The translations under genes were made by a program, and so were the position numbers. From assembly GCA_041615815.1 (NCBI GenBank), contig JBFJCP010000026.1, positions 8,567-72,566 of the forward strand: DNA of 64,000 bases, in the 5' to 3' direction. Origin of the DNA: Gemmatimonadales bacterium. Its GTDB lineage: Bacteria; Gemmatimonadota; Gemmatimonadetes; Gemmatimonadales; GWC2-71-9. Positions 5,093 to 25,731 of the stretch are shown one piece after another (the stretch's first letter is position 1; each line of letters opens with the position of its first letter). The notes beneath the pieces were generated by a model that was not told the DNA's origin, did no database searches, and was given only the letters and a program-made list of their open reading frames with translations.

Positions 5093-8059
5093 GTGAAGAA
5101 TCACTACGAGCGTGTGAAGGCCGCCCTGGCGGATCGCTACGCCTTGGTACGGGAGCTGGGGCGAGGTGGGGCCGCCACGGTCTACGTGGCAAAGGACCTG
5201 AACCACAACCGCGAGGTTGCGGTCAAGGTATTGCGGCCGGAGCTCACCGCGGCGGTGAGCGCCGAGCGCTTCCTGCGAGAGATCGAGATCGCGGCAAACC
5301 TGTCCCATCCCCACATCCTGCCAGTCTACGATTCGGGAACGGCCGGAGGGGTCTTGTACTACGTCATGCCGCTCGTGGAAGGCGAATCCCTGCGCGCTCG
5401 TATCAATCGAGAGACGCAATTGCCGCTTGAGGATGCGCTCAAGATCACGCGCGAGGTCGCGGATGCACTTGGCCATGCGCACAGCTACGGGGTCGTGCAC
5501 CGGGACGTGAAACCGGAGAACATTCTTCTTTCCGGGGACCACGCCATCATCGCCGATTTTGGGGTGGCGCGCGCCGTCGAGATGGCCGGAACGGATCGAC
5601 TCACGGAGACAGGCCTCGTCGTCGGAACGCCCGCCTACATGAGCCCGGAACAGGCCAGCGGCGATTCTCGAGTGGACGGGCGTGCGGATCTCTACTCCCT
5701 GGCGTGCGTGCTCTATGAGATGGTGGGGGGAGAACCGCCACACTCCGGTCCAACGCCGCAGGCCATTCTCGCGCGACAGCTCACCGGTGAAGTTCGGTCG
5801 CTGCGTCCGCTCCGCTCAACGGTCTCACCCGCGCTCGACCGCGCCATTCGCCGGGCGCTGGCTCCAGCGGCCGCAGACCGGTACCCCACGGCGAGCGACT
5901 TCGTCCGGAGTCTTGCTGCGGGCGAAGCCGAACCCACCACGCCGCCGGCGCGGCCCGTCGGTGCCCGGCTGGCGCTCGGTGTTGTCGGTGCGCTGGTATT
6001 GGGAGCCGTGGCCTACGTGGGGCTGGGTCGGGACGGCGCGGTCAGCTCCGTGACCGATGACCGGCTTGCGGTCGCCGTCTTTCCCTTTCGACCCACAGAC
6101 GCCGACGCGGCACAATGGTCCGAGCAGGTACCGGATCTCCTGGCCACGGTCCTCGATGGCACGCCGGAGGTCCGTGTTGCGGATCCGTGGTCGCTGTGGC
6201 GGACGCTACGTCCCGAGCGGACGGCCCGAGCGGTCAGTCCCGTGGACCCCCTCGAGGCGAGCGAGATTGCTGGCGACGCGGGAGCGGACCGGTTCGTCCT
6301 GGGTACCGTGACCGACGATGCGGGCATCATTCGCCTCAACGTTCGAGTGTATCGGGCCGGGGTCGGCGAACCGCTCCGCGCCTTCTTGTTCGATGGGCCA
6401 GCAGATAGCCTGGGAGGTTTGGTTCAACGTCTTGCCGTGGCGATCATTGGGGAGGTGTTTCCGCGGAGACCTGCCACGGACCTCCCCGGATCATCGGTTG
6501 CCGGCTACGGCACGCAGTCCGCCGACGCGCTCAAATCCTATCTCCGTGCCCGGGATGCGATGCGGCGCGGCCAAGTGGACGAGGCCGACGCGGCGATCGA
6601 CCAGGCAGTGGCCGCAGACTCGACATTTGCGCTCGCCTTGGTGGAAGCGACGACCATCAAGTCGTGGGTGATGTTTCTCAGCGGGGAGTTCTTCCGGGGC
6701 CTCATGGAGCTCGCCGAGCGGGCCGTGCGCTATAGTGACTCTCTGAGCGAGCGGAACCGCCTGCGCGCGAGGTCGGCCTTGGCCTCCATCCGAACCGACG
6801 GCATTACCGCTGCGGAAGCAGCGACACGGATCGTCCAAATCGACAGCTCGGATGTGGACGGCTGGCGCCGTCTGGCGTACTACCAGTCCGTGTATGGATG
6901 GCAGTTTGGTGCCGACGAGTACGACGCCGTTCGCTCGGCTGAGCGGGCCGTCCAACTCGACTCGACCTTCATCCCGTCGTTGCTCAGCCGCGCCTGGCTT
7001 TCGGTTACGTGGGAGAATCCCGAAGACATTCGCGTGCAGATGGTGCGATTGGGGCAGGTGGATACTACCAACGCCCTGGTACGGGCAACGTTGATCGCGC
7101 TGCGTGGCGTGCTGGCCGATGATCGGGAGTTCGATGCGCTCGCCGACACGATCGGCGCGGCACCGTTCCGGGAGTGGTTGACTGCCATTCGCTACCTTCG
7201 GTCGCTGCGCCCGAGCCGCGCCGAGGCGGTGCTCGATCGCCTGCGTGGCCGGGCGAGTCCAGGGACTCCTCAACGGGCGGTGCTCGGCGAAATCGCGCGC
7301 CTCAAGATTGCCGAGGGCCGTATCGCAGAAGTCGACTCGGGCATCGCGGCGGGGGACTACGAAGTCCAGGAACTCTATAAGAACCTGCGCCGCTTTTTCG
7401 TGGCAGCCAGTATAGCGGGCGTCGGCGACCCGGCCGTGAGTGAACGGGCTGTCGCCTGGCTCGAGGAGTACGTGCCACCGGATTCCGCGCTTCACTACTT
7501 CGAGACGCGCCCCGTCTGGTGGACCCTCTGGTTGGTGGGGGCCTATCACGCGACGGTCGGCGATACCCTGATCACACAGCGCTGGAAGGAGGCTATCGGG
7601 ACACTGCCGGCCGGCGGCACGTCGTCGGACTACCGTGGCGGACTTCAGGCCGACTTGGATGCCCGTGTCGCTGCACGTCGCGGCGATCTGACCGCTGCCG
7701 TCCCGCTGGCCGAGCGTGCCGTTCACTTGTGGTCCATCCATACCGACAACGACTGGGAAGCCTTGGCCGCGCCCGCCATGCGGTTCCACCTCGCGATGCT
7801 GATGCGAGCCACGGGGCGTCCGGACAGTGCCGAGGCCCTGCTTCACTCGCTCGTGCCGCCGACGACGTGGATGGGCTTCTACACCGCCCGAGCGTCCTAC
7901 GAGCTCGGTCAGCTGGCCGAGGCTCGTGAGGACTTCGAGGACGCGGCACGCTATTACCTGGCGGCTGTGCGCCTGTGGGAGCGGGGGGGCGCCGAGGTGC
8001 GCGAGTGGCGCGAACAGGCCACGCAGGGGCTTCGGCGCGTCGTCGGACGTCGGGGCTAG
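5093..8059 (+). CDS. Hanks-type Ser/Thr protein kinase with TM segment and TolB-N/TPR-like C-terminal region
   Basis: GRGGAATV, VAVKVL, HRDVKPEN, DFG, GTPAYMSPEQ; TM LALGVVGALVLGAVAYVGL; helical repeat tail. Start chosen at GTG 5093 (ORF is open from 4847). Confidence 0.9.
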   Translation: MKNHYERVKAALADRYALVRELGRGGAATVYVAKDLNHNREVAVKVLRPELTAAVSAERFLREIEIAANLSHPHILPVYDSGTAGGVLYYVMPLVEGESLRARINRETQLPLEDALKITREVADALGHAHSYGVVHRDVKPENILLSGDHAIIADFGVARAVEMAGTDRLTETGLVVGTPAYMSPEQASGDSRVDGRADLYSLACVLYEMVGGEPPHSGPTPQAILARQLTGEVRSLRPLRSTVSPALDRAIRRALAPAAADRYPTASDFVRSLAAGEAEPTTPPARPVGARLALGVVGALVLGAVAYVGLGRDGAVSSVTDDRLAVAVFPFRPTDADAAQWSEQVPDLLATVLDGTPEVRVADPWSLWRTLRPERTARAVSPVDPLEASEIAGDAGADRFVLGTVTDDAGIIRLNVRVYRAGVGEPLRAFLFDGPADSLGGLVQRLAVAIIGEVFPRRPATDLPGSSVAGYGTQSADALKSYLRARDAMRRGQVDEADAAIDQAVAADSTFALALVEATTIKSWVMFLSGEFFRGLMELAERAVRYSDSLSERNRLRARSALASIRTDGITAAEAATRIVQIDSSDVDGWRRLAYYQSVYGWQFGADEYDAVRSAERAVQLDSTFIPSLLSRAWLSVTWENPEDIRVQMVRLGQVDTTNALVRATLIALRGVLADDREFDALADTIGAAPFREWLTAIRYLRSLRPSRAEAVLDRLRGRASPGTPQRAVLGEIARLKIAEGRIAEVDSGIAAGDYEVQELYKNLRRFFVAASIAGVGDPAVSERAVAWLEEYVPPDSALHYFETRPVWWTLWLVGAYHATVGDTLITQRWKEAIGTLPAGGTSSDYRGGLQADLDARVAARRGDLTAAVPLAERAVHLWSIHTDNDWEALAAPAMRFHLAMLMRATGRPDSAEALLHSLVPPTTWMGFYTARASYELGQLAEAREDFEDAARYYLAAVRLWERGGAEVREWREQATQGLRRVVGRRG

Positions 8060-12806: not shown

Positions 12807-15251
12807 ATGGCCGACGAATCGATTCGTTCATCACAGAGCACTTTCGGATCGGAAGCCTCGGAGGTCATGGAGCATCCGGAGCGCATCGGTACCTACCGGA
12901 TCCTCCAGATCTTGGGCGAGGGGGGGATGGGTCTCGTCTATGAGGCGGAGCAAACCGAGCCGGTGGTTCGGCGCGTAGCGCTAAAAGTCATGAAGCCCGG
13001 TCTCGATACCAGGCAAGTCCTGGCCCGCTTCGAGGCCGAGCGGCAAGCACTGGCCGTCATGGATCATCCCAACATCGCCAAGGTGCTGGATGCCGGGGTG
13101 ACGGAGGCCGGACGGCCGTACTTCGTGATGGAGTTGGTGAAAGGCATCCCCCTCAACGATTATTGTGACTCCTTCAAGCTCTCCACCCGTGCCCGTCTCG
13201 TACTGTTCGTCGAGATCTGCCGGGCGGTGCAGCATGCGCATCAAAAAGGTGTCATTCACCGAGATCTCAAGCCGTCGAACATCCTCGTCAGCGAGCAGGA
13301 CGATCGGCCCGTCCCCAAAATCATCGATTTTGGGGTTGCCAAAGCCATCTCCCAACCGCTGACGGAACGCACGCTCGTGACCGAACACGGGCGGGCCATT
13401 GGCACGCCGGCCTACATGAGTCCCGAGCAGGCAGGTCTGTCCGGCTTGGACATCGATACGCGGACTGACATTTACTCACTGGGCGTCATTCTCTACGAGT
13501 TGTTGGTGGGCAGTCTCCCCGTCGAGCCCCGCGAGGTGGGGGGCATGCCCGAGTTCTTTGCGCAGCTCGTGATGCGGGAGACGGATCCCCCGACGCCGAG
13601 TGCCCGCTTCACGAGTCTGGTGGGACACCAACAGTCCGTGGCGGAATTCCGCCACACCGATCCCAAGTCGCTGATTCGCGAGCTGAGGGGCGATTTGGAC
13701 TGGATCGTGATGAAAGCGATGGAGAAGGAGCGGGCGAGGCGGTATGAGACGGCTAATGGGCTCGCGATGGACATCGAGCGACATCTGCAAGAAGAGCCCG
13801 TGTTGGCCCGGCCGCCGAGCGCTGCCTACCGCCTCTCCAAGTTCGTCGCGCGGAACCGAAGCGGGGTTGTTGCCGCGGCGATCGTCGCCATCGCGTTGGC
13901 AGGTGGTGCCGTTGCGGCCACGGTGGGTATGGTTCGGGCCACGCGTGCCGAGGCCGCGACCGCACGCGAAGCTGAGGCACTACGGCAAGTGTCGGGTTTT
14001 CTCGTTGGGCTGTTCGCGGTCAACGATCCCAGTGAGGCGCGCGGCAATTCGGTGACCGCCCGTGAGCTGTTGGACAAAGCGGCGGAACGGATCGATGTGG
14101 AGCTGGCGGAGCAGCCACAGGTGCAGGCGCGCCTCATGCTCACGATGGGAGAGGCGTACCAAAGCCTCGGCTTATACGATCGGGCCGCTCCCATGCTCGA
14201 GCGTGGGTTGGCGGTACGGGAAAATGTACACGGCGAAGACCACCTCCAGGTGGCGGAAGGACTCTTCATGCTCGCCGAGCTCTTCCGGAAGCAAGGGAAA
14301 TACGACGAGGCAGAACGTCTCTACCAGCGGGCCATGGCCATCCAGGAAGCGCGGCTCGGCCCCGCCGCTCCGGCACTGGCCGCCACGCTCGGTGGGCTCG
14401 GAACCGCGTACGTGTCGCAAGGGAAGTTTGATGAGGCGGAGCCACTCCTGGAGCGAGCGCTGGCCATCCGCGAGGACGCCTTCGCACCCGACCATACGGA
14501 TGTCGGAAGTAGCCTTGGAGCGCTGGGAAGCCTGTACACCCGGCAAGGGCGCTACGCGGAAGCCGACTCCATGTTCAGCCGGGAACTCGTGATTCGGGAG
14601 AAGGCGTTCGGTCCGGATCATCCCGACGTGGCGTACACGCTCAGCGATCTCGGTGGTGTCCGGTGGCTCCAAGGCAATCTCGAGGATGCGGACCGCTTCT
14701 TCCGACGATCGCTCGATATCCGGACGCGCATGCTGGGTCCTGACCACCCTGAGTTGGGTTCCATCCTCAACAACCTCGGGGTGCTGGCATGGACGCGGGG
14801 AGAGTATCGCGAAGCAGCTGGGCTGTACCAGCGAGCGCTGGACATCTATGCGAAGGCGCTCGGTCCGAACCATATTCGTGTAGCTGGCGCGCTCAATAAC
14901 ATTGCCGAGACGCATTGGAAGCTCGGGAACGTCGCCGAGGGAGAGCAATACTTCCGCCGTGCGCTGGCCATCAAGGAGGGGATACTCGAGCCCCTCCACC
15001 CCTCCTTGGCCATTACGCTCAACGGCCTCGCGAATCTGTACCGGGACGCCGGGCGCTATGCAGATGCAGCGCCGCTGTACCGGCGAGCGCTCTCGATTCG
15101 TGAGACGACTCTCGGCGCCACCGACCGTCACGTCATCGAAACGCTGTCCGATTGGGCTACCATGCTTCGGGCATCAGGTCAGGCCTCTGCGGCGGATTCG
15201 CTCCAAGCCCGGATCGATTCCATCAAGATGGAAACGGAGGGCGGATCGTGA
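12807..15251 (+). CDS. Ser/Thr protein kinase with TM segment and kinesin-light-chain-type TPR repeats
   Basis: GEGGMGLV, VALKV, HRDLKPSN, DFG, GTPAYMSPEQ; repeats such as RALAIRE..GPDHPDVA..L. Confidence 0.93.
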   Translation: MADESIRSSQSTFGSEASEVMEHPERIGTYRILQILGEGGMGLVYEAEQTEPVVRRVALKVMKPGLDTRQVLARFEAERQALAVMDHPNIAKVLDAGVTEAGRPYFVMELVKGIPLNDYCDSFKLSTRARLVLFVEICRAVQHAHQKGVIHRDLKPSNILVSEQDDRPVPKIIDFGVAKAISQPLTERTLVTEHGRAIGTPAYMSPEQAGLSGLDIDTRTDIYSLGVILYELLVGSLPVEPREVGGMPEFFAQLVMRETDPPTPSARFTSLVGHQQSVAEFRHTDPKSLIRELRGDLDWIVMKAMEKERARRYETANGLAMDIERHLQEEPVLARPPSAAYRLSKFVARNRSGVVAAAIVAIALAGGAVAATVGMVRATRAEAATAREAEALRQVSGFLVGLFAVNDPSEARGNSVTARELLDKAAERIDVELAEQPQVQARLMLTMGEAYQSLGLYDRAAPMLERGLAVRENVHGEDHLQVAEGLFMLAELFRKQGKYDEAERLYQRAMAIQEARLGPAAPALAATLGGLGTAYVSQGKFDEAEPLLERALAIREDAFAPDHTDVGSSLGALGSLYTRQGRYAEADSMFSRELVIREKAFGPDHPDVAYTLSDLGGVRWLQGNLEDADRFFRRSLDIRTRMLGPDHPELGSILNNLGVLAWTRGEYREAAGLYQRALDIYAKALGPNHIRVAGALNNIAETHWKLGNVAEGEQYFRRALAIKEGILEPLHPSLAITLNGLANLYRDAGRYADAAPLYRRALSIRETTLGATDRHVIETLSDWATMLRASGQASAADSLQARIDSIKMETEGGS

Positions 15252-20542: not shown

Positions 20543-21652
20543 ATGATGGCGGAGGCACGATGGCACGATCTCGGTGCGGTTCAAGCATTGAAGCGAGTTT
20601 CTCTCCAACAACTTCGCGTCGGGCGTACCGCCATTGCGCTGTCCTTCCAAAACGGCGAGTTCGCCGCGATCTCGGGTACGTGCAACCACTCCGGTGGGCC
20701 CCTCGGTGACGGCCGGCTCGACGGCGAGTACGTGGTGTGTCCGTGGCACAACTGGAAGTTTCATCGGCGCACAGGAGAAGGTGAACCGGGATTCGAGGAC
20801 GACAGGGTACCACGATACGAATTGCGCGAACGTGGCGGACGGCTAGAGATCAATCTCTCCGCAGCCACGAAGCGGCATCGAAAGCCGCATGATCCGCACC
20901 CCCTCGAGCGGGTCGTAGACCGGGGCAATGGTCCGCTCCGCGTCGTCGGCATTTCCACCACGGTGATGGATGAGAAGAACCCGCGCTACTCGACATCCGA
21001 AGAGCTCTTGCGGACCGCCGTCAGTCATGCCGCCGCTCGAGGTGCGAAAACCCGCTGGATTGGGCTGAACGACCTGCAGTTTCGCGCATGCGAAGGGTAT
21101 TACTCCAAGAGCGCGCATGCGTGCACATGGCCTTGCTCGATCACGCAGATGGATCCGCAGGATCAGATGGACCGGGTGTACGAGGCGATTGTCCACTGGG
21201 GCGACGTTCTGATCATCGCCAGCCCGATCCGGTGGGGAAGCGCGAGCTCACTGTACTTCAAGATGACCGAGCGCCTGAACTGCGTGCAGAATCAGATCAC
21301 GATTCGCAACCGCGTGCTCATGCGGAACAAGACGGCCGCGTTCATCATCACCGGCGGTCAGGACAACGTACAGGCCGTGGCGGGGCAGATGCTGACGTTC
21401 TTCGCGGAGCTGGGTTGTGTGTTCCCCCAGTTTCCCTTCATCGCGCACAGCCGCGGGTGGGAGGCGGAGGACATGGAGCGCAACGTGTGGTATGTGCGGG
21501 AGAGTAGCGAGTTGCACGACGGCGCCCGCGAACTGGTGGAGCGTGCCATGGCGATGGCCCACGTGCTGCGCGAACGACCGGTATGCGGGGAGCAGGTGCG
21601 TCGTGCCGGCCGGAAAGCGGCGGGCGAGACGGCGCTGGCGGCCCGTCCATGA
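20543..21652 (+). CDS. Rieske [2Fe-2S] domain fused to an NADPH-dependent FMN reductase/iron-sulfur-flavoprotein-like domain
   Basis: CNH...CPWH Rieske ligands; flavodoxin-like IIASPIRWG and AAFIITGG; CEGYYSKSAHACTWPC cysteine cluster. Confidence 0.88.
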   Translation: MMAEARWHDLGAVQALKRVSLQQLRVGRTAIALSFQNGEFAAISGTCNHSGGPLGDGRLDGEYVVCPWHNWKFHRRTGEGEPGFEDDRVPRYELRERGGRLEINLSAATKRHRKPHDPHPLERVVDRGNGPLRVVGISTTVMDEKNPRYSTSEELLRTAVSHAAARGAKTRWIGLNDLQFRACEGYYSKSAHACTWPCSITQMDPQDQMDRVYEAIVHWGDVLIIASPIRWGSASSLYFKMTERLNCVQNQITIRNRVLMRNKTAAFIITGGQDNVQAVAGQMLTFFAELGCVFPQFPFIAHSRGWEAEDMERNVWYVRESSELHDGARELVERAMAMAHVLRERPVCGEQVRRAGRKAAGETALAARP

Positions 21653-21717: not shown

Positions 21718-22530
21718 ATGTGGCAACGTGTGGTCCTCGTTCTGGTCGTCTTCCTCTCGAGCTGTTCGCCGGCTGAGCGCGCCACGGAGGGGGCCGTCAC
21801 ATCGTCCATTCCGGATGCCATCCTGGGCCAGGCACCACCGCCCCAGGGTCAGACCGTCACCTATCAAGCAGGGGACTCGCTGGTGCGGGGCTATCTCGCG
21901 GTCCCCGAAGGTGAGGGACCGTTCCCAGCGTTGATCCTGATCCATGAGTGGAATGGGCTGGTGGATCGAGTCCGACAGATGGCGGATGCGTTCGCGAGGG
22001 AGGGCTATGTGACGTTGGCGGCGGACCTGTACCGGAGCCGCACAGGGAGCAACCGAGACGAGAACATGGCGCTGGTCCGGGAAACTCGGGGCAACATGGC
22101 CGCCGTCATTGCCAACCTCGATGCCGCGCAACGGTTTCTCCGGGACCGTGCCGACGTGACTGGGAGGGTGGGCGTGATGGGCTGGTGCTTTGGCGGTGGG
22201 ATTGCCCTCAGCTATGCGCTGGGCGGGGAGCGCCACGATGCCACCGCCATCTTCTATGGTTCACTCGTGGATGATCCGGCCGAGCTTGCCAAGCTGGATC
22301 ACCCGGTGTACGGAACGTTCGCCGAGATGGATCAAGGGATTCCACCGGATCAGGTGCGACGCTTTGCCGCCACGCTCGACTCCCTCGGTATCCAGAACGA
22401 CATCCATATCTACGACGCCGTGAACCACGGGTTCTGGCTGCGTGTAGAGGAAGACAGGGAGCTTCGGGAAGCCCCGGCGCAAGACGCGTGGACACGGCTG
22501 AAACAGTTCTTGGGCCGCGTACTCGGGTAA
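21718..22530 (+). CDS. Dienelactone hydrolase family lipoprotein
   Basis: LIHEWNGL, GWCFGG nucleophile elbow, HGF; FLSSC lipobox; CAGGAG RBS. Confidence 0.9.
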   Translation: MWQRVVLVLVVFLSSCSPAERATEGAVTSSIPDAILGQAPPPQGQTVTYQAGDSLVRGYLAVPEGEGPFPALILIHEWNGLVDRVRQMADAFAREGYVTLAADLYRSRTGSNRDENMALVRETRGNMAAVIANLDAAQRFLRDRADVTGRVGVMGWCFGGGIALSYALGGERHDATAIFYGSLVDDPAELAKLDHPVYGTFAEMDQGIPPDQVRRFAATLDSLGIQNDIHIYDAVNHGFWLRVEEDRELREAPAQDAWTRLKQFLGRVLG

Positions 22531-22630
22531 CATACGAGGCAGACGGTCGGGCCGTCGTGGACGTGAGGTGGTGTTACCGCTATATACAAGAAGGCTCCCC
22601 ACCGTTCCCCCATGCCAGAGGAGCACCTGC

Positions 22631-23227
22631 ATGCGACTAGCATTTTCCAGCCTTCTCCTGAGTGCCGGCCTGATGATGCTGGCCCTCCAGCCGGCCGCCG
22701 CACAGACGATGGGCACGCCGCTCGACGTGGGAGTGATGGCACCCGACTTCGCCATTCCGGGCGGCACACGATACGGAGTACTGCGGGACCCGGTTCGGCT
22801 GAGTGACTTCCGTGGAAAGACGGTCGTGCTGGCGTTCTTCTACCGAGCGCGAACGCGTGGCTGAACGATTCAAATGAGAGCGTACCGTGATCAGTACGCA
22901 CAGCTGTTCCGCGGCGGCCGCGAGATCGTGCTCATCGCCATTAGCACGGATTCGGTGGCCGCACTGGCGTCATGGGCGGAGGACGAGGATTTTCCATTCC
23001 TCTTTGGCAGTGATCTCAATGCGGCGGTGGGTCAGCAGTATGGCGCATTCATCGATCGGGGTGAGCGCGGGTTGATCGACAACCGATCGCTGTTCGTCGT
23101 GGACGCGGAGGGTCGGATTGCCCATGTCCAGGCACCGTTTCGTGAGATCGATCCGCAGGCGTACACCGAGCTGGGAGAAGCCCTGGCCCGTATCGCGCCG
23201 CCCATGGACACAGAACCCGCGAATTGA
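22631..23227 (+). CDS. Exported peroxiredoxin (BCP/AhpC-TSA family), predicted selenoprotein with Sec at TGA 22862-22864
   Basis: In-frame readthrough gives G..APDF...LSDFRGKTVVLAFFYRARTRG-U-TIQMRAYRD...IAISTDS...FPFLFGSD...RSLFVVDAEGRI. The TGA occupies the peroxidatic Cys site of TxxC. Signal peptide ends AAA-Q. Confidence 0.88.
22880..22899 (+). promoter_or_regulatory. Candidate bacterial SECIS hairpin
   Basis: GCGTAC-CGTGATCA-GTACGC perfect 6-bp stem starting 15 nt after the TGA; GU at loop positions 2-3. Confidence 0.55.
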
Positions 23228-23250
23228 CCGATAAGAGTACCGGATCAATG

Positions 23251-23286
23251 CAACAGGGCCCGCCGTGCTGGCGGGCCCTACTGTTG
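23251..23286. terminator. Hairpin between convergent genes, probable bidirectional terminator
   Basis: AGGGCCCGCC-GTGCT-GGCGGGCCCT 10-bp stem with CAACAG/CTGTTG flanking complementarity. Confidence 0.65.
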
Positions 23287-23303
23287 TCACCGCCACCCCG
23301 AGA

Positions 23304-23852
23304 TCATTCCGTGCCGGCGCTCGTTGCCGCTGCGAGCACGCGCTGGATTGCGGCATCGATGTTCTGATCGGGTCCGGCTCCCGTGTACACCACGCGTCCC
23401 GCGCTGTCGAGAATGACGACGTAGGACGTGATGGGGGCCAGGAACGCACGCGTGGCTTTTCCCTGGCCGTCCCACAACACGCGAAACGGGATGGGATGTT
23501 TCTCGAGGTGCCGCCGGATCCTGCGCGGCGTTTGGTTCACGCCGACGCTGACGGCGATGAACTCGACGTCGTCGCCGTAGCGGGCGTGGGCTTCCCGCAT
23601 TCGGGGAAGCAGTGCCTCACAATTCTCGCACCATAATGCCCAGAACTCGAGCAGGACGGGCTTCTGACCGATCCACTGCCTCAGATCCACCGGCTGCCCG
23701 TCGAGATCCTCGATGGTGACCGGCTCCGGCGCGGCCCCGCGTGGAATGCCGATCTCGTCTTGGGCATGTAGCGCCGCGGCGGACGAGAGGACCGTGATCA
23801 GCGCTACGACCAGGGATGTGAGGTTTCTCGCAAGCCGATGAAGCACTTCCAC
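23304..23852 (-). CDS. TlpA/ResA-like exported thiol-disulfide oxidoreductase
   Basis: C-terminal part of ORF 23304..24788: signal peptide, DLDGQPVDL, LLEFWALWCENC, ILDSAGRV; GTG 23852 with AGGAG upstream. Confidence 0.88.
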   Translation of the reverse strand: MEVLHRLARNLTSLVVALITVLSSAAALHAQDEIGIPRGAAPEPVTIEDLDGQPVDLRQWIGQKPVLLEFWALWCENCEALLPRMREAHARYGDDVEFIAVSVGVNQTPRRIRRHLEKHPIPFRVLWDGQGKATRAFLAPITSYVVILDSAGRVVYTGAGPDQNIDAAIQRVLAAATSAGTE

Positions 23853-23881: not shown

Positions 23882-24610
23882 TCACAGCACCAGACCCATC
23901 TGAATGAAGTAGTACTCCGCTATCGCCAACATTACCACCCCAGCGGCTCGTTTGATCCACAACATCCACGGTCCGGATTTGGGTAGCGCGGTGAGGAGAC
24001 CCGAAAACAGACCGACCGCCACCAGCAACGCCATCATGCCCATCGAGAACACGAACAGGTAGATGAACCCCCACATCGCGCTCCCGGTGCTCCCGACCCA
24101 TGTGAGCACCGCCGCAAAGGCTGGGGCGCCACAGGGAGCGGCGACGACGCCCGAGGTGGCGCCCAAGAGAAACACGGCGGGGTAGGACCCACCACCCAAT
24201 CCCCCCGCCCACGCCATGAGACGTTGCGGTGCCGAGACGGGAATCACACCCAGCATCGCCAATCCGAAGATCAGCAGCAGATTCCCCATGGCAAACCGGG
24301 CCCACGGGCTGGCGGAGACCGTTCCGAATAGCGATCCCGTGAGACCAGCAAGGAGCCCGAGGGTTGCATAGAGCAGGGCCAAGCCCGAGACGTAGGTCAA
24401 CGTGAGCGCAACCGTCCGACCGCGGGCAGCGTCGGGCCCCGCGGTGCCTCCGAGGATGCCCGCGGTAATGGGAATCATCGGATACACGCACGGGGTTAGA
24501 CTCGTCACGAGCCCCGCGCCGAACAACGTCGCGAGGGCGGCCACCGGCCGATGATTGAGGGCCTCCGTGAGTCCCTGCGCGAGACTGAACGTCAAATCGA
24601 GTTCGGGCAT
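23882..24610 (-). CDS. ccdA: Cytochrome c biogenesis/DsbD transmembrane-domain protein CcdA
   Basis: SLTPCVYPMIP and APCGAP conserved Cys motifs; about six TM helices. Confidence 0.88.
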   Translation of the reverse strand: MPELDLTFSLAQGLTEALNHRPVAALATLFGAGLVTSLTPCVYPMIPITAGILGGTAGPDAARGRTVALTLTYVSGLALLYATLGLLAGLTGSLFGTVSASPWARFAMGNLLLIFGLAMLGVIPVSAPQRLMAWAGGLGGGSYPAVFLLGATSGVVAAPCGAPAFAAVLTWVGSTGSAMWGFIYLFVFSMGMMALLVAVGLFSGLLTALPKSGPWMLWIKRAAGVVMLAIAEYYFIQMGLVL

Positions 24611-24786: not shown

Positions 24787-25731
24787 ATGAATGCGAACGT
24801 CGACCGCTTGAGGTCCGTCCTCCCGGCCCGCTACGTCCTCGAACACGAGCTGGGTGCAGGGAGTTTCGCCATCGGCTATCAAGCGCAGGATCGAGCCGCA
24901 GACCGGAAAGTCGTTCTCAAGGTCCTTAGGCCGGAGATCGCCGCCACGATCGATCGGGATCGGTTCTTGGCGGAGATCCGGGCTGCCACGGAACTCCAGC
25001 ATCCCAACATCATTGCGGTGTATGACGCGGGCCAAGCGGGCGAGTTCCTCTACTTTGTACGGCCGTTCGTGGAAGGGGAATCGCTCAGGGACTGGCTGGA
25101 CCGCGAGACCCAGCTCTCGCTCGACGACGCCATGCGCGTCACGCGGGAGGTGGCCGACGCGATGGGCTTTGCCCACAGTCACGGCGTGCCACATGGCGAT
25201 CTTCGCCCGGAGAACATCTTACTCAGGGATGGCCATGCGGTGGTTGGTGACTTCGGTGTCGAGCGGGCCGTGTTCGCCGCCGCCGCCGATAATCTCGCTG
25301 GACTCGCCAACATCGTCGATACCAGTTCCTACATGAGTCCGGAGCAGTTCCGGGGTCCGCGCCAATTGGACGAACGGAGCGACGTGTTCTCGCTGGGATG
25401 TGTCTTGTATGAAATGTTGGCGGGGCAACCGCCGTCCCACGCCGCACCCGAAGGGGACGGCGCAGGAGGGACGGGAAGTCCGCCGCCCGTCACCGACTTC
25501 CGTCCCGGAGTGCCGCCGGAGGTGGTCTCAGCCCTGGATCGGGCGTTGGCTGGAGATCCCGAGCGCCGGTTCGGCACGGCCGGGCAATTCTGCGAGGATC
25601 TGCGCGTCGTGCGACTCTCGACGGGAAAGTTCGCGCTGCTCAAACCAACGCCGTGGTATTCCGGCAAGATGCTGGGGACGCTGCTCCTCGTCGTCTTCAT
25701 GGCGATCGTCGCGCTGATCATGTGGCTCTGA
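24787..25731 (+). CDS. Ser/Thr kinase-like protein with degenerate motifs and a C-terminal membrane anchor
   Basis: GAGSFAIG, VLKVL, HGDLRPEN, DFG, DTSSYMSPEQ; hydrophobic C-terminal tail. Confidence 0.85.
   Translation: MNANVDRLRSVLPARYVLEHELGAGSFAIGYQAQDRAADRKVVLKVLRPEIAATIDRDRFLAEIRAATELQHPNIIAVYDAGQAGEFLYFVRPFVEGESLRDWLDRETQLSLDDAMRVTREVADAMGFAHSHGVPHGDLRPENILLRDGHAVVGDFGVERAVFAAAADNLAGLANIVDTSSYMSPEQFRGPRQLDERSDVFSLGCVLYEMLAGQPPSHAAPEGDGAGGTGSPPPVTDFRPGVPPEVVSALDRALAGDPERRFGTAGQFCEDLRVVRLSTGKFALLKPTPWYSGKMLGTLLLVVFMAIVALIMWL

Follow-up and report, generated by a model that had tools for sequence, protein, structure and literature searches.

Does a peroxiredoxin gene with TGA in place of the codon for the peroxidatic cysteine, and tyrosine in place of the active-site proline, encode an exported selenoenzyme and, if it does, how might such an enzyme work without that proline and without a single cysteine to resolve it? 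The gene lies in a stretch of 64,000 nucleotides (the window, from whose first letter all coordinates are counted) of a Gemmatimonadales bacterium, a member of the Gemmatimonadota, which are an abundant soil and marine phylum. A preliminary description of the locus had read it as a periplasmic seleno-peroxidase without a resolving residue, hidden from normal gene callers.

A peroxiredoxin frame with an internal TGA

The gene and its residues are placed as follows, the rows mentioned being those of an alignment of 200 related genes described below:

22631..23227, forward strand: peroxiredoxin gene, predicted one-Sec BCP/PrxQ-like, 198 codons plus the stop TGA
22618..22623, forward strand: Shine-Dalgarno-like GAGGAG, 7 nt upstream of the ATG, by sequence inspection
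22631..22702, forward strand: predicted signal peptide, residues 1-24, with cleavage between AAA and Q at 24/25, from sequence and hydropathy
22841..22843, forward strand: Tyr71 (TAC) at the Pro position of PxxxTxxC, from alignments to solved peroxiredoxins
22853..22855, forward strand: Thr75 of the TxxU motif, Thr/Ser in 133/136 Sec and 64/64 Cys rows
22862..22864, forward strand: in-frame TGA at the peroxidatic position, putative selenocysteine 78, Cys in 115/119 aligned database homologues
23084..23086, forward strand: Arg152 (DNRSLF), the conserved catalytic arginine of peroxiredoxins, Arg in 200/200 rows

The frame runs from the ATG at 22631 to a stop TGA at 23225-23227 and holds a single internal TGA, codon 78, in the context FFYRARTRG-U-TIQM; rereading and translation bore out both this TGA and the absence of Cys from the 198-residue product. 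The proposed continuation of the thioredoxin fold beyond the TGA, with the Arg of RSLFVVD, was likewise upheld, as a Pfam AhpC-TSA match spans the TGA (residues 33-165, 86 bits against a cut-off of 26) and that arginine, Arg152, is kept in every row. Alignments to solved peroxiredoxins set codon 78 on the peroxidatic Cys, Thr75 on the Thr and Arg152 on the conserved Arg, and they agree with the earlier statement that the Cys codon is TGA and the Pro is replaced by Tyr. The structure predicted from a 50-sequence alignment reaches a pLDDT of 93.4, with BCP proteins as its best fold matches (TM 0.74-0.76); this model carries Cys in place of Sec and its input alignment holds mostly Pro forms, and prediction from the single sequence reached a pLDDT of only 43.8.

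By a simple hydropathy rule the N-terminus resembles a Sec/SPI signal peptide, with Arg2 and a hydropathy reaching 2.2, in keeping with the signal peptide of the preliminary description, and the rule finds a signal-like N-terminus in 113 of the 136 Sec genes and 48 of the 64 Cys genes; export of the protein is predicted with high confidence. A promoter scan around the gene found none.

The standard code breaks the gene into one frame of 77 codons and another of 117, and gene callers do miss the full gene, for the databases hold the 77-residue half (on 32 contigs) and the 117-residue half (on 48) as separate proteins. Sequencing error at the TGA was excluded by contigs of two other studies that carry the same codon: one spans 22605-23213 with 0 differences, and the other, from a strain of a third study, spans 22820-23185 with 4 differences, none of them at the TGA (this comparison covered four of nine listed runs, one of these being a possible source).

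Hairpin, decoding machinery and the spread of the TGA form

Shortly after the TGA lies the element that would direct its decoding:

22880..22899, forward strand: SECIS-like hairpin in the coding region, 6-bp stem, 8-nt loop, GCGTAC-CGTGATCA-GTACGC

As described earlier, the hairpin starts 15 nt after the TGA; 21 nt separate the TGA from its loop, in which positions 2-3 are GU. The bacterial SECIS, in the model of a 2026 review (PMC13188914), has a loop of 3-9 nt with a G within its first two positions, a stem of 4-16 bp, 16-37 nt between UGA and loop and an energy of at most -7.5, and the hairpin falls within these limits on every count (8 nt, 6 bp, GU at 2-3, 21 nt, -8.5 kcal/mol), with no exact match to the finer loop sub-pattern that the review also describes. 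Folded by itself, the hairpin is not significant against shuffles (z = -1.9 at 34 nt, 7 of 200 shuffles being as good), windows of 51-80 nt gave no signal over shuffles, Rfam has no match in 22500-23400, and the sole flag of a terminator scan is this same hairpin read on the minus strand. The significance of the hairpin comes from its conservation across genes, not from single-sequence folding.

Relatives of the gene are widespread: at E <= 1e-20, 350 of 401 sampled Gemmatimonadota genomes match, a count that includes distant paralogues and the unpublished genome G157, which entered this tally alone. The 210 loci that were fetched had been selected so as to cover the best hits, most of those with Cys and divergent ones, which means that their proportions are not those of random sampling. 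They yielded 222 hits and, after removal of the spurious L192_2, duplicates and paralogues, 200 distinct genes. One of these, L178, is itself a paralogue, which counts of 64 Cys rows include and counts of 63 exclude. The 199 Gemmatimonadota orthologues consist of 136 with TGA (this gene included), spread over 62 genus-level groups, and 63 with Cys; counts of "stops inside" from the genome search were left unused, some of those TGAs being terminal (G126). Metagenomes gave 386 relatives, of which the best 80 include 78 with TGA and two with Cys, and a plasmid search for relatives found only distant matches. TGA is thus paired with Cys across homologues (of 119 in the databases 115 have Cys, while the 136 genome genes have TGA).

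While the fetched genomes mostly have TGA (136/199), 165 of 169 full-length database representatives have Cys. The antioxidant gene is probably common yet stored as two fragments, with the consequence that protein databases show almost only Cys forms; across the sampled phylum the form with Sec is common and not a rarity. Five loci of genus g57 (L094, L095, L106, L174 and L187) each hold a tandem Sec copy and Cys copy. Two further sequences, P0014 and P0017, have Leu at the catalytic position and Phe at the Pro site with the hairpin-encoded residues intact, and are possibly read errors or dead copies.

Set against one another, the two forms differ sharply in the hairpin. All six stem pairs are intact in 136/136 TGA rows versus 5/64 Cys rows, the exact hairpin 20-mer occurs in 127/136 versus 0/64, the mean stem probability is 0.96 versus 0.18, and third codon positions inside the hairpin are 96-100% fixed in TGA rows versus 55-81% in Cys rows; four Cys genes share the seven residues that the hairpin encodes, none of them with the same letters. 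Just below the stem, the pair +15/+36 covaries: it is Watson-Crick in 49 of 62 TGA genus-level groups, where a permutation expects 17.4, and in 10 of 26 Cys groups, where 9.6 are expected. It is Watson-Crick in all 78 metagenome TGA loci (T-A 45, C-G 28, G-C 4, A-T 1) and unpaired, A/A, in this gene.

The selenocysteine machinery, which the preliminary description had named as a requirement, is present. The genome (95.7% complete) has a tRNA-Sec (C1:222338-222434; Rfam 71.6 bits, cut-off 47) together with selA (507 bits), selB (362.5) and selD (368, with one in-frame TGA), all above their cut-offs. Across genomes, selA occurs in 78 of 80 with the TGA form versus 2 of 48 with Cys only, a contrast in which kin genomes are not independent and which persists inside genera: in g11 selA is found in the one TGA genome and is absent from 13 Cys genomes, and in g31 it is found in four TGA genomes and is absent from two Cys genomes. 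Of genomes with a distant paralogue as best match, 26 of 30 have selA.

These data bear on two ways in which the TGA might not encode selenocysteine. If the TGA were a genuine stop, or a mistake in assembly, the gene would be a pseudogene or two small proteins. In favour of this are the separate database halves, an ATG located 9 nt past the TGA and the lack of significance of the hairpin alone; against it, the same TGA recurs in contigs of other studies and in 136 genes of 62 genus-level groups, it tracks selA, and the hairpin is fixed at synonymous sites and covaries only in TGA genes. The fold, moreover, is continuous across the TGA and either half alone would lack a redox residue. This reading, examined because the preliminary description had named expression of separate halves as its own refutation, is very improbable and is effectively refuted by conservation. 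A changed genetic code, with TGA read as Trp or Cys, has in its favour the Trp at this position in two database homologues (P0020 and P0085); cluster mates of P0085 end at the same codon, however, so that its Trp is the gene caller's reading, most genes of the window terminate at TGA as a normal stop, and the only tRNA with a TCA anticodon found in the genome is tRNA-Sec. We give such a code a negligible chance.

Judged from sequence, the TGA at codon 78 is very likely read as selenocysteine. SelB, bound to the hairpin (+16..+35), would deliver Sec-tRNA to the UGA; the signal peptide would direct the protein to the periplasm; and there the selenolate of Sec78, the sole redox residue of the predicted protein, held by Thr75 and Arg152, would attack a hydroperoxide and become a selenenic acid. 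The chain as a whole up to this point is likely, and the protein is, with good confidence, predicted to be a peroxide reductase.

Other candidate selenoproteins were seen in the same genome. At 33-614 of the window (forward strand) a second likely one, of a known kind, is an AhpD-like peroxidase-related gene with CxxU and a TGA at 273-275, which when read through matches TIGR01926 (144 bits, cut-off 81.8) and carries a short hairpin some 12 nt past its TGA. Two AhpD/CMD-like read-throughs with CxxU (C2:215260 and C2:9355 of genome G000; L297 and L298) are each followed, 13-15 nt on, by a hairpin whose loop contains GT. Genome-wide surveys by TGA plus hairpin and by coding score, with 145 and 782 candidates, were too noisy to serve as a selenoproteome and were rejected.

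The active-site proline in Sec and Cys forms

Among the 136 Sec genes, the Pro site is occupied by Phe in 71, Tyr in 36, Pro in 22, Ile in 4, Val in 2 and Ser in 1; that is, 114 are non-Pro, and 107 of these have Phe or Tyr. Pro is found in all 63 Cys orthologues and, counted before duplicate removal, in 85/85 Cys hits including distant paralogues. The metagenome relatives follow the same pattern, with Pro in both Cys genes and in none of the 78 Sec genes, and no other alignment column separates the Sec from the Cys group as well. Among 165 Cys proteins of the databases, 163 have Pro (one of them taken from the alignment of database homologues, the search pattern having passed over it) and two have Tyr (P0026 and P0178); in these two the hairpin-encoded residues are changed, so they look real.

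By building trees with the Pro and catalytic sites and the hairpin codons masked, we examined how often the two characters have changed. Parsimony requires at least 16 Sec/Cys changes and at least 14 Pro/non-Pro changes, and on a 105-row subset the AU test rejects a single clade both for the non-Pro rows (p 1.6e-5) and for the Sec rows (p 3.2e-5). A model of correlated change gains 48-54 likelihood-ratio units, compared with at most 8.6 in 23 simulations, although such tests overstate, the alignment is short and only 23 of 102 branches are starred. In simulations under independence the class of Cys with non-Pro was empty in 0 of 412 comparable draws (the null simulation with a Cys+Pro root gave only three). 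The fitted sequence is loss of Sec followed by an immediate return to Pro, a direction that depends on the root and that gene transfer could mimic. An independent-pairs test of the link between Pro and Sec found four pairs, on starred branches, and was uninformative (p 0.5). Three genera (g11, g31 and g97) hold non-Pro Sec and Pro Cys forms side by side. An upstream RNA structure as the cause of the codon change at the Pro site was considered and rejected, no Sec-specific structure having been found.

PMC3337327 describes the proline as a solvent barrier, and a possible reason for its loss is that a selenolate may need less shielding. There is precedent for requirements limited to Cys forms in the methionine sulfoxide reductases MsrB, as reported in PMC1278935. 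We hypothesize, with confidence a little short of even, that selenium frees the "absolutely conserved" Pro and that, when Sec is lost, Pro is regained for Cys, often by way of a Pro+Sec intermediate. In the proposed mechanism, selenium would make the Pro dispensable and let Phe or Tyr take its place, and lineages that lose Sec decoding would carry Cys, nearly always with Pro.

One alternative accepts the selenoprotein and takes the aromatic residue as the sign of a new function (on organic or lipid hydroperoxides, on peroxynitrite or as a redox relay), the Pro pattern then reflecting lineage or substrate. The predominance of Phe and Tyr (107 of 114) does look selected and not free, Pro is kept in 22 Sec genes, two proteins combine Tyr with Cys, and well-supported independent pairs are few. 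Thr/Ser and Arg, on the other hand, are kept throughout, the non-Pro rows do not form one clade, none of the 412 independence draws left the Cys+non-Pro class empty, and the two forms stand side by side in g11, g31 and g97; a new function is unlikely in our estimate.

If selenium does free the proline, these genes amount to a repeated natural experiment on the invariance of Pro and on the neighbours that a switch from Sec to Cys needs, in a cell-envelope selenoperoxidase that would be recycled with no resolving residue at all. The natural Sec/Cys by Pro/aromatic combinations make a four-mutant test of the invariant Pro, and of what Sec and Cys each need in the active site, directly possible. 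A 2006 survey (PMC1794560) suggested that exchanges between Cys and Sec are stabilised by residues nearby; it lists no Sec-to-Cys events for peroxiredoxins.

Reduction of the enzyme and its known relatives

The genes that could supply electrons lie immediately downstream and face the peroxiredoxin gene:

23255..23279, no strand assigned: 10-bp perfect inverted repeat, terminator-like, between the convergent peroxiredoxin and TlpA-like genes
23304..23852, reverse strand: TlpA/ResA-like thioredoxin with WCENC and a hydrophobic N-terminus, proposed periplasmic reductant (ResA 59.5 bits, under the family cut-off)
23882..24610, reverse strand: CcdA-like membrane electron transporter (DsbD_TM only; Pfam DsbD_TM 144 bits)

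A T-tail terminator scan did not pick up the inverted repeat. Among the 136 Sec loci, TlpA is adjacent and convergent in 57 and CcdA is in the locus of 58; one or both are convergent beside 59 Sec genes, from six families. Within flanks of 1-1.5 kb neither was seen for the other 77 Sec genes, nor for any of the 64 Cys rows. CcdA occurs widely in the phylum, in 69 of 78 further genomes. Distantly related to this gene is an exported Cys paralogue with Pro (L148-L156, L177-L185), which in 12 of 17 loci follows TlpA on the same strand; a tblastn search of this genome did not find the paralogue, and here it is the Sec gene that faces the TlpA-CcdA pair. Other neighbours of the peroxiredoxin are not conserved across loci, among them a Rieske domain fused to a flavodoxin-like FMN reductase domain (20543-21652, forward strand). 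Ser/Thr-kinase-like paralogues are many, both in the window (5093-8059, 12867-15251, 24787-25731) and on other contigs, with dozens of tblastn hits.

The earlier claim that the enzyme has no resolving residue stands in so far as the product has no Cys, and the mature region lacks Cys in 131 of 136 Sec genes; it does not mark the selenium form, since 63 of 64 Cys rows likewise lack a second Cys. With no second Cys in the Cys rows and no Cys in the Sec rows, this is a one-residue family. Lack of a resolving Cys is familiar among peroxiredoxins: according to PMC4749874, it applies to about one third of PrxQ and is found in all six subfamilies, and 1-Cys enzymes are resolved by a small thiol or another protein.

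We propose that the CxxC of the TlpA-like neighbour would reduce the selenenic acid directly, with CcdA supplying cytoplasmic electrons in the manner of ScsB-TlpA-PprX of Caulobacter, where TlpA is reported to reduce the periplasmic peroxiredoxin PprX (PMC3322552). The TlpA-like protein has roughly an even chance of being the direct reductant. Alternatively, the selenoperoxidase would be real and exported but recycled by something else (a small thiol, some other thioredoxin of the periplasm or a partner subunit); TlpA and CcdA would then be no more than neighbours, serving cytochrome c maturation. The pair does lie on the opposite strand behind a terminator-like repeat, 77 of 136 Sec genes lack it in their flanks, and CcdA occurs in most genomes anyway (69/78); engineered Sec-containing MsrBs without a resolving Cys were not reducible by thioredoxin in the account of PMC1278935, which together with the thiol- or protein-resolved 1-Cys peroxiredoxins (PMC4749874) offers precedent. 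The phylum nevertheless has two different exported peroxiredoxins that neighbour the same pair, TlpA and CcdA, each in its own arrangement, and TlpA does reduce PprX in Caulobacter (PMC3322552). We regard recycling by some other reductant as a possibility of lesser weight.

As to family, the protein has the PF00578 fold, Thr75 and the distal Arg152, and lacks the Pro of Pxxx(T/S)xxC, which, with the Arg, Poole and Nelson call "absolutely conserved", the motif being called "essential" for peroxiredoxins (PMC4749874); on a strict definition it therefore fails one peroxiredoxin feature. The clade belongs to the peroxiredoxins, as far as its sequences tell, and the gene is a variant within it, Pro being kept in 63/63 Cys and in 22 Sec orthologues. 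No NCBIfam peroxiredoxin model reaches its cut-off for this protein, and none covers the clade; the best-scoring family is BCP/PrxQ (NF006960, 65.4 bits, cut-off 140), and the PrxU model NF040737 gives 50.6 bits against 270. The protein is BCP-like, its best family and structures being BCP, and is not filed as BCP. Very likely it is a BCP/PrxQ-like one-Sec peroxiredoxin, of a known selenoprotein family. Two ordinary Cys peroxiredoxins with Pro, a two-Cys BCP and an AhpE-like protein, are encoded elsewhere in the genome (G000, C18:17088 and C32:30758).

A search of literature listings found no description of this family in Gemmatimonadota, nor of a peroxiredoxin lacking the Pro, though subscription papers or review supplements may list the family. 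The main text of PMC13188914 contains neither of the word stems "gemmatimonad" and "periplasm", and the review calls PxxxTxxU highly conserved in Sec peroxiredoxins. Sec peroxiredoxins with TxxU have been catalogued from 2005 or earlier (PMC1088965, PMC9312934, PMC13188914).

Four known systems come closest. With the bacterial Sec "Prx" family (PF00578/COG1225; prototype PrxU of Eubacterium acidaminophilum), as it is described, the gene shares the PF00578 fold, peroxidatic Sec, TxxU and a SECIS in the coding region; it differs by its predicted signal peptide and by the replacement of Pro, which is seen in 114 of 136 Sec genes. The BCP/PrxQ and 1-Cys AhpE proteins of known structure (PDB 2ywn, 2cx3, 3hjp, 3drn, 5enu and 1xvw) are its best sequence and fold matches at 22-29% identity, and this set is the nearest by both measures, scores leaving the choice between the PrxQ and AhpE subfamilies unsettled; all six have Pro and Cys in the alignments, and their aligned part has no signal peptide.

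Periplasmic peroxiredoxins have been known since 2012. PprX of Caulobacter crescentus, compared here through its description (PMC3322552), is likewise of BCP/PrxQ type; it has a signal sequence, which for the protein here is predicted, and draws its electrons from a TlpA-like thioredoxin and a transporter of the DsbD family, which here are the proposed source. It is a Cys enzyme with PxxxTxxC, a resolving Cys and ScsB, whereas here we find a putative Sec, no Cys, Tyr for Pro and a transporter of CcdA type. The predicted enzyme would add a selenium form to the known periplasmic peroxide reductases. The fourth is mammalian MsrB1 (Sec) against MsrB2 and MsrB3 (Cys), in which residues that the Cys forms conserve and need are reported to be dispensable in the Sec form (PMC1278935). 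MsrB1 has another fold and reaction and needs a resolving Cys, which the protein here lacks; and unlike in MsrB, the switch between Sec and Cys appears here to have occurred many times in nature. The locus is not a new kind of system: it presents an unusual and testable active-site rule within a known family.
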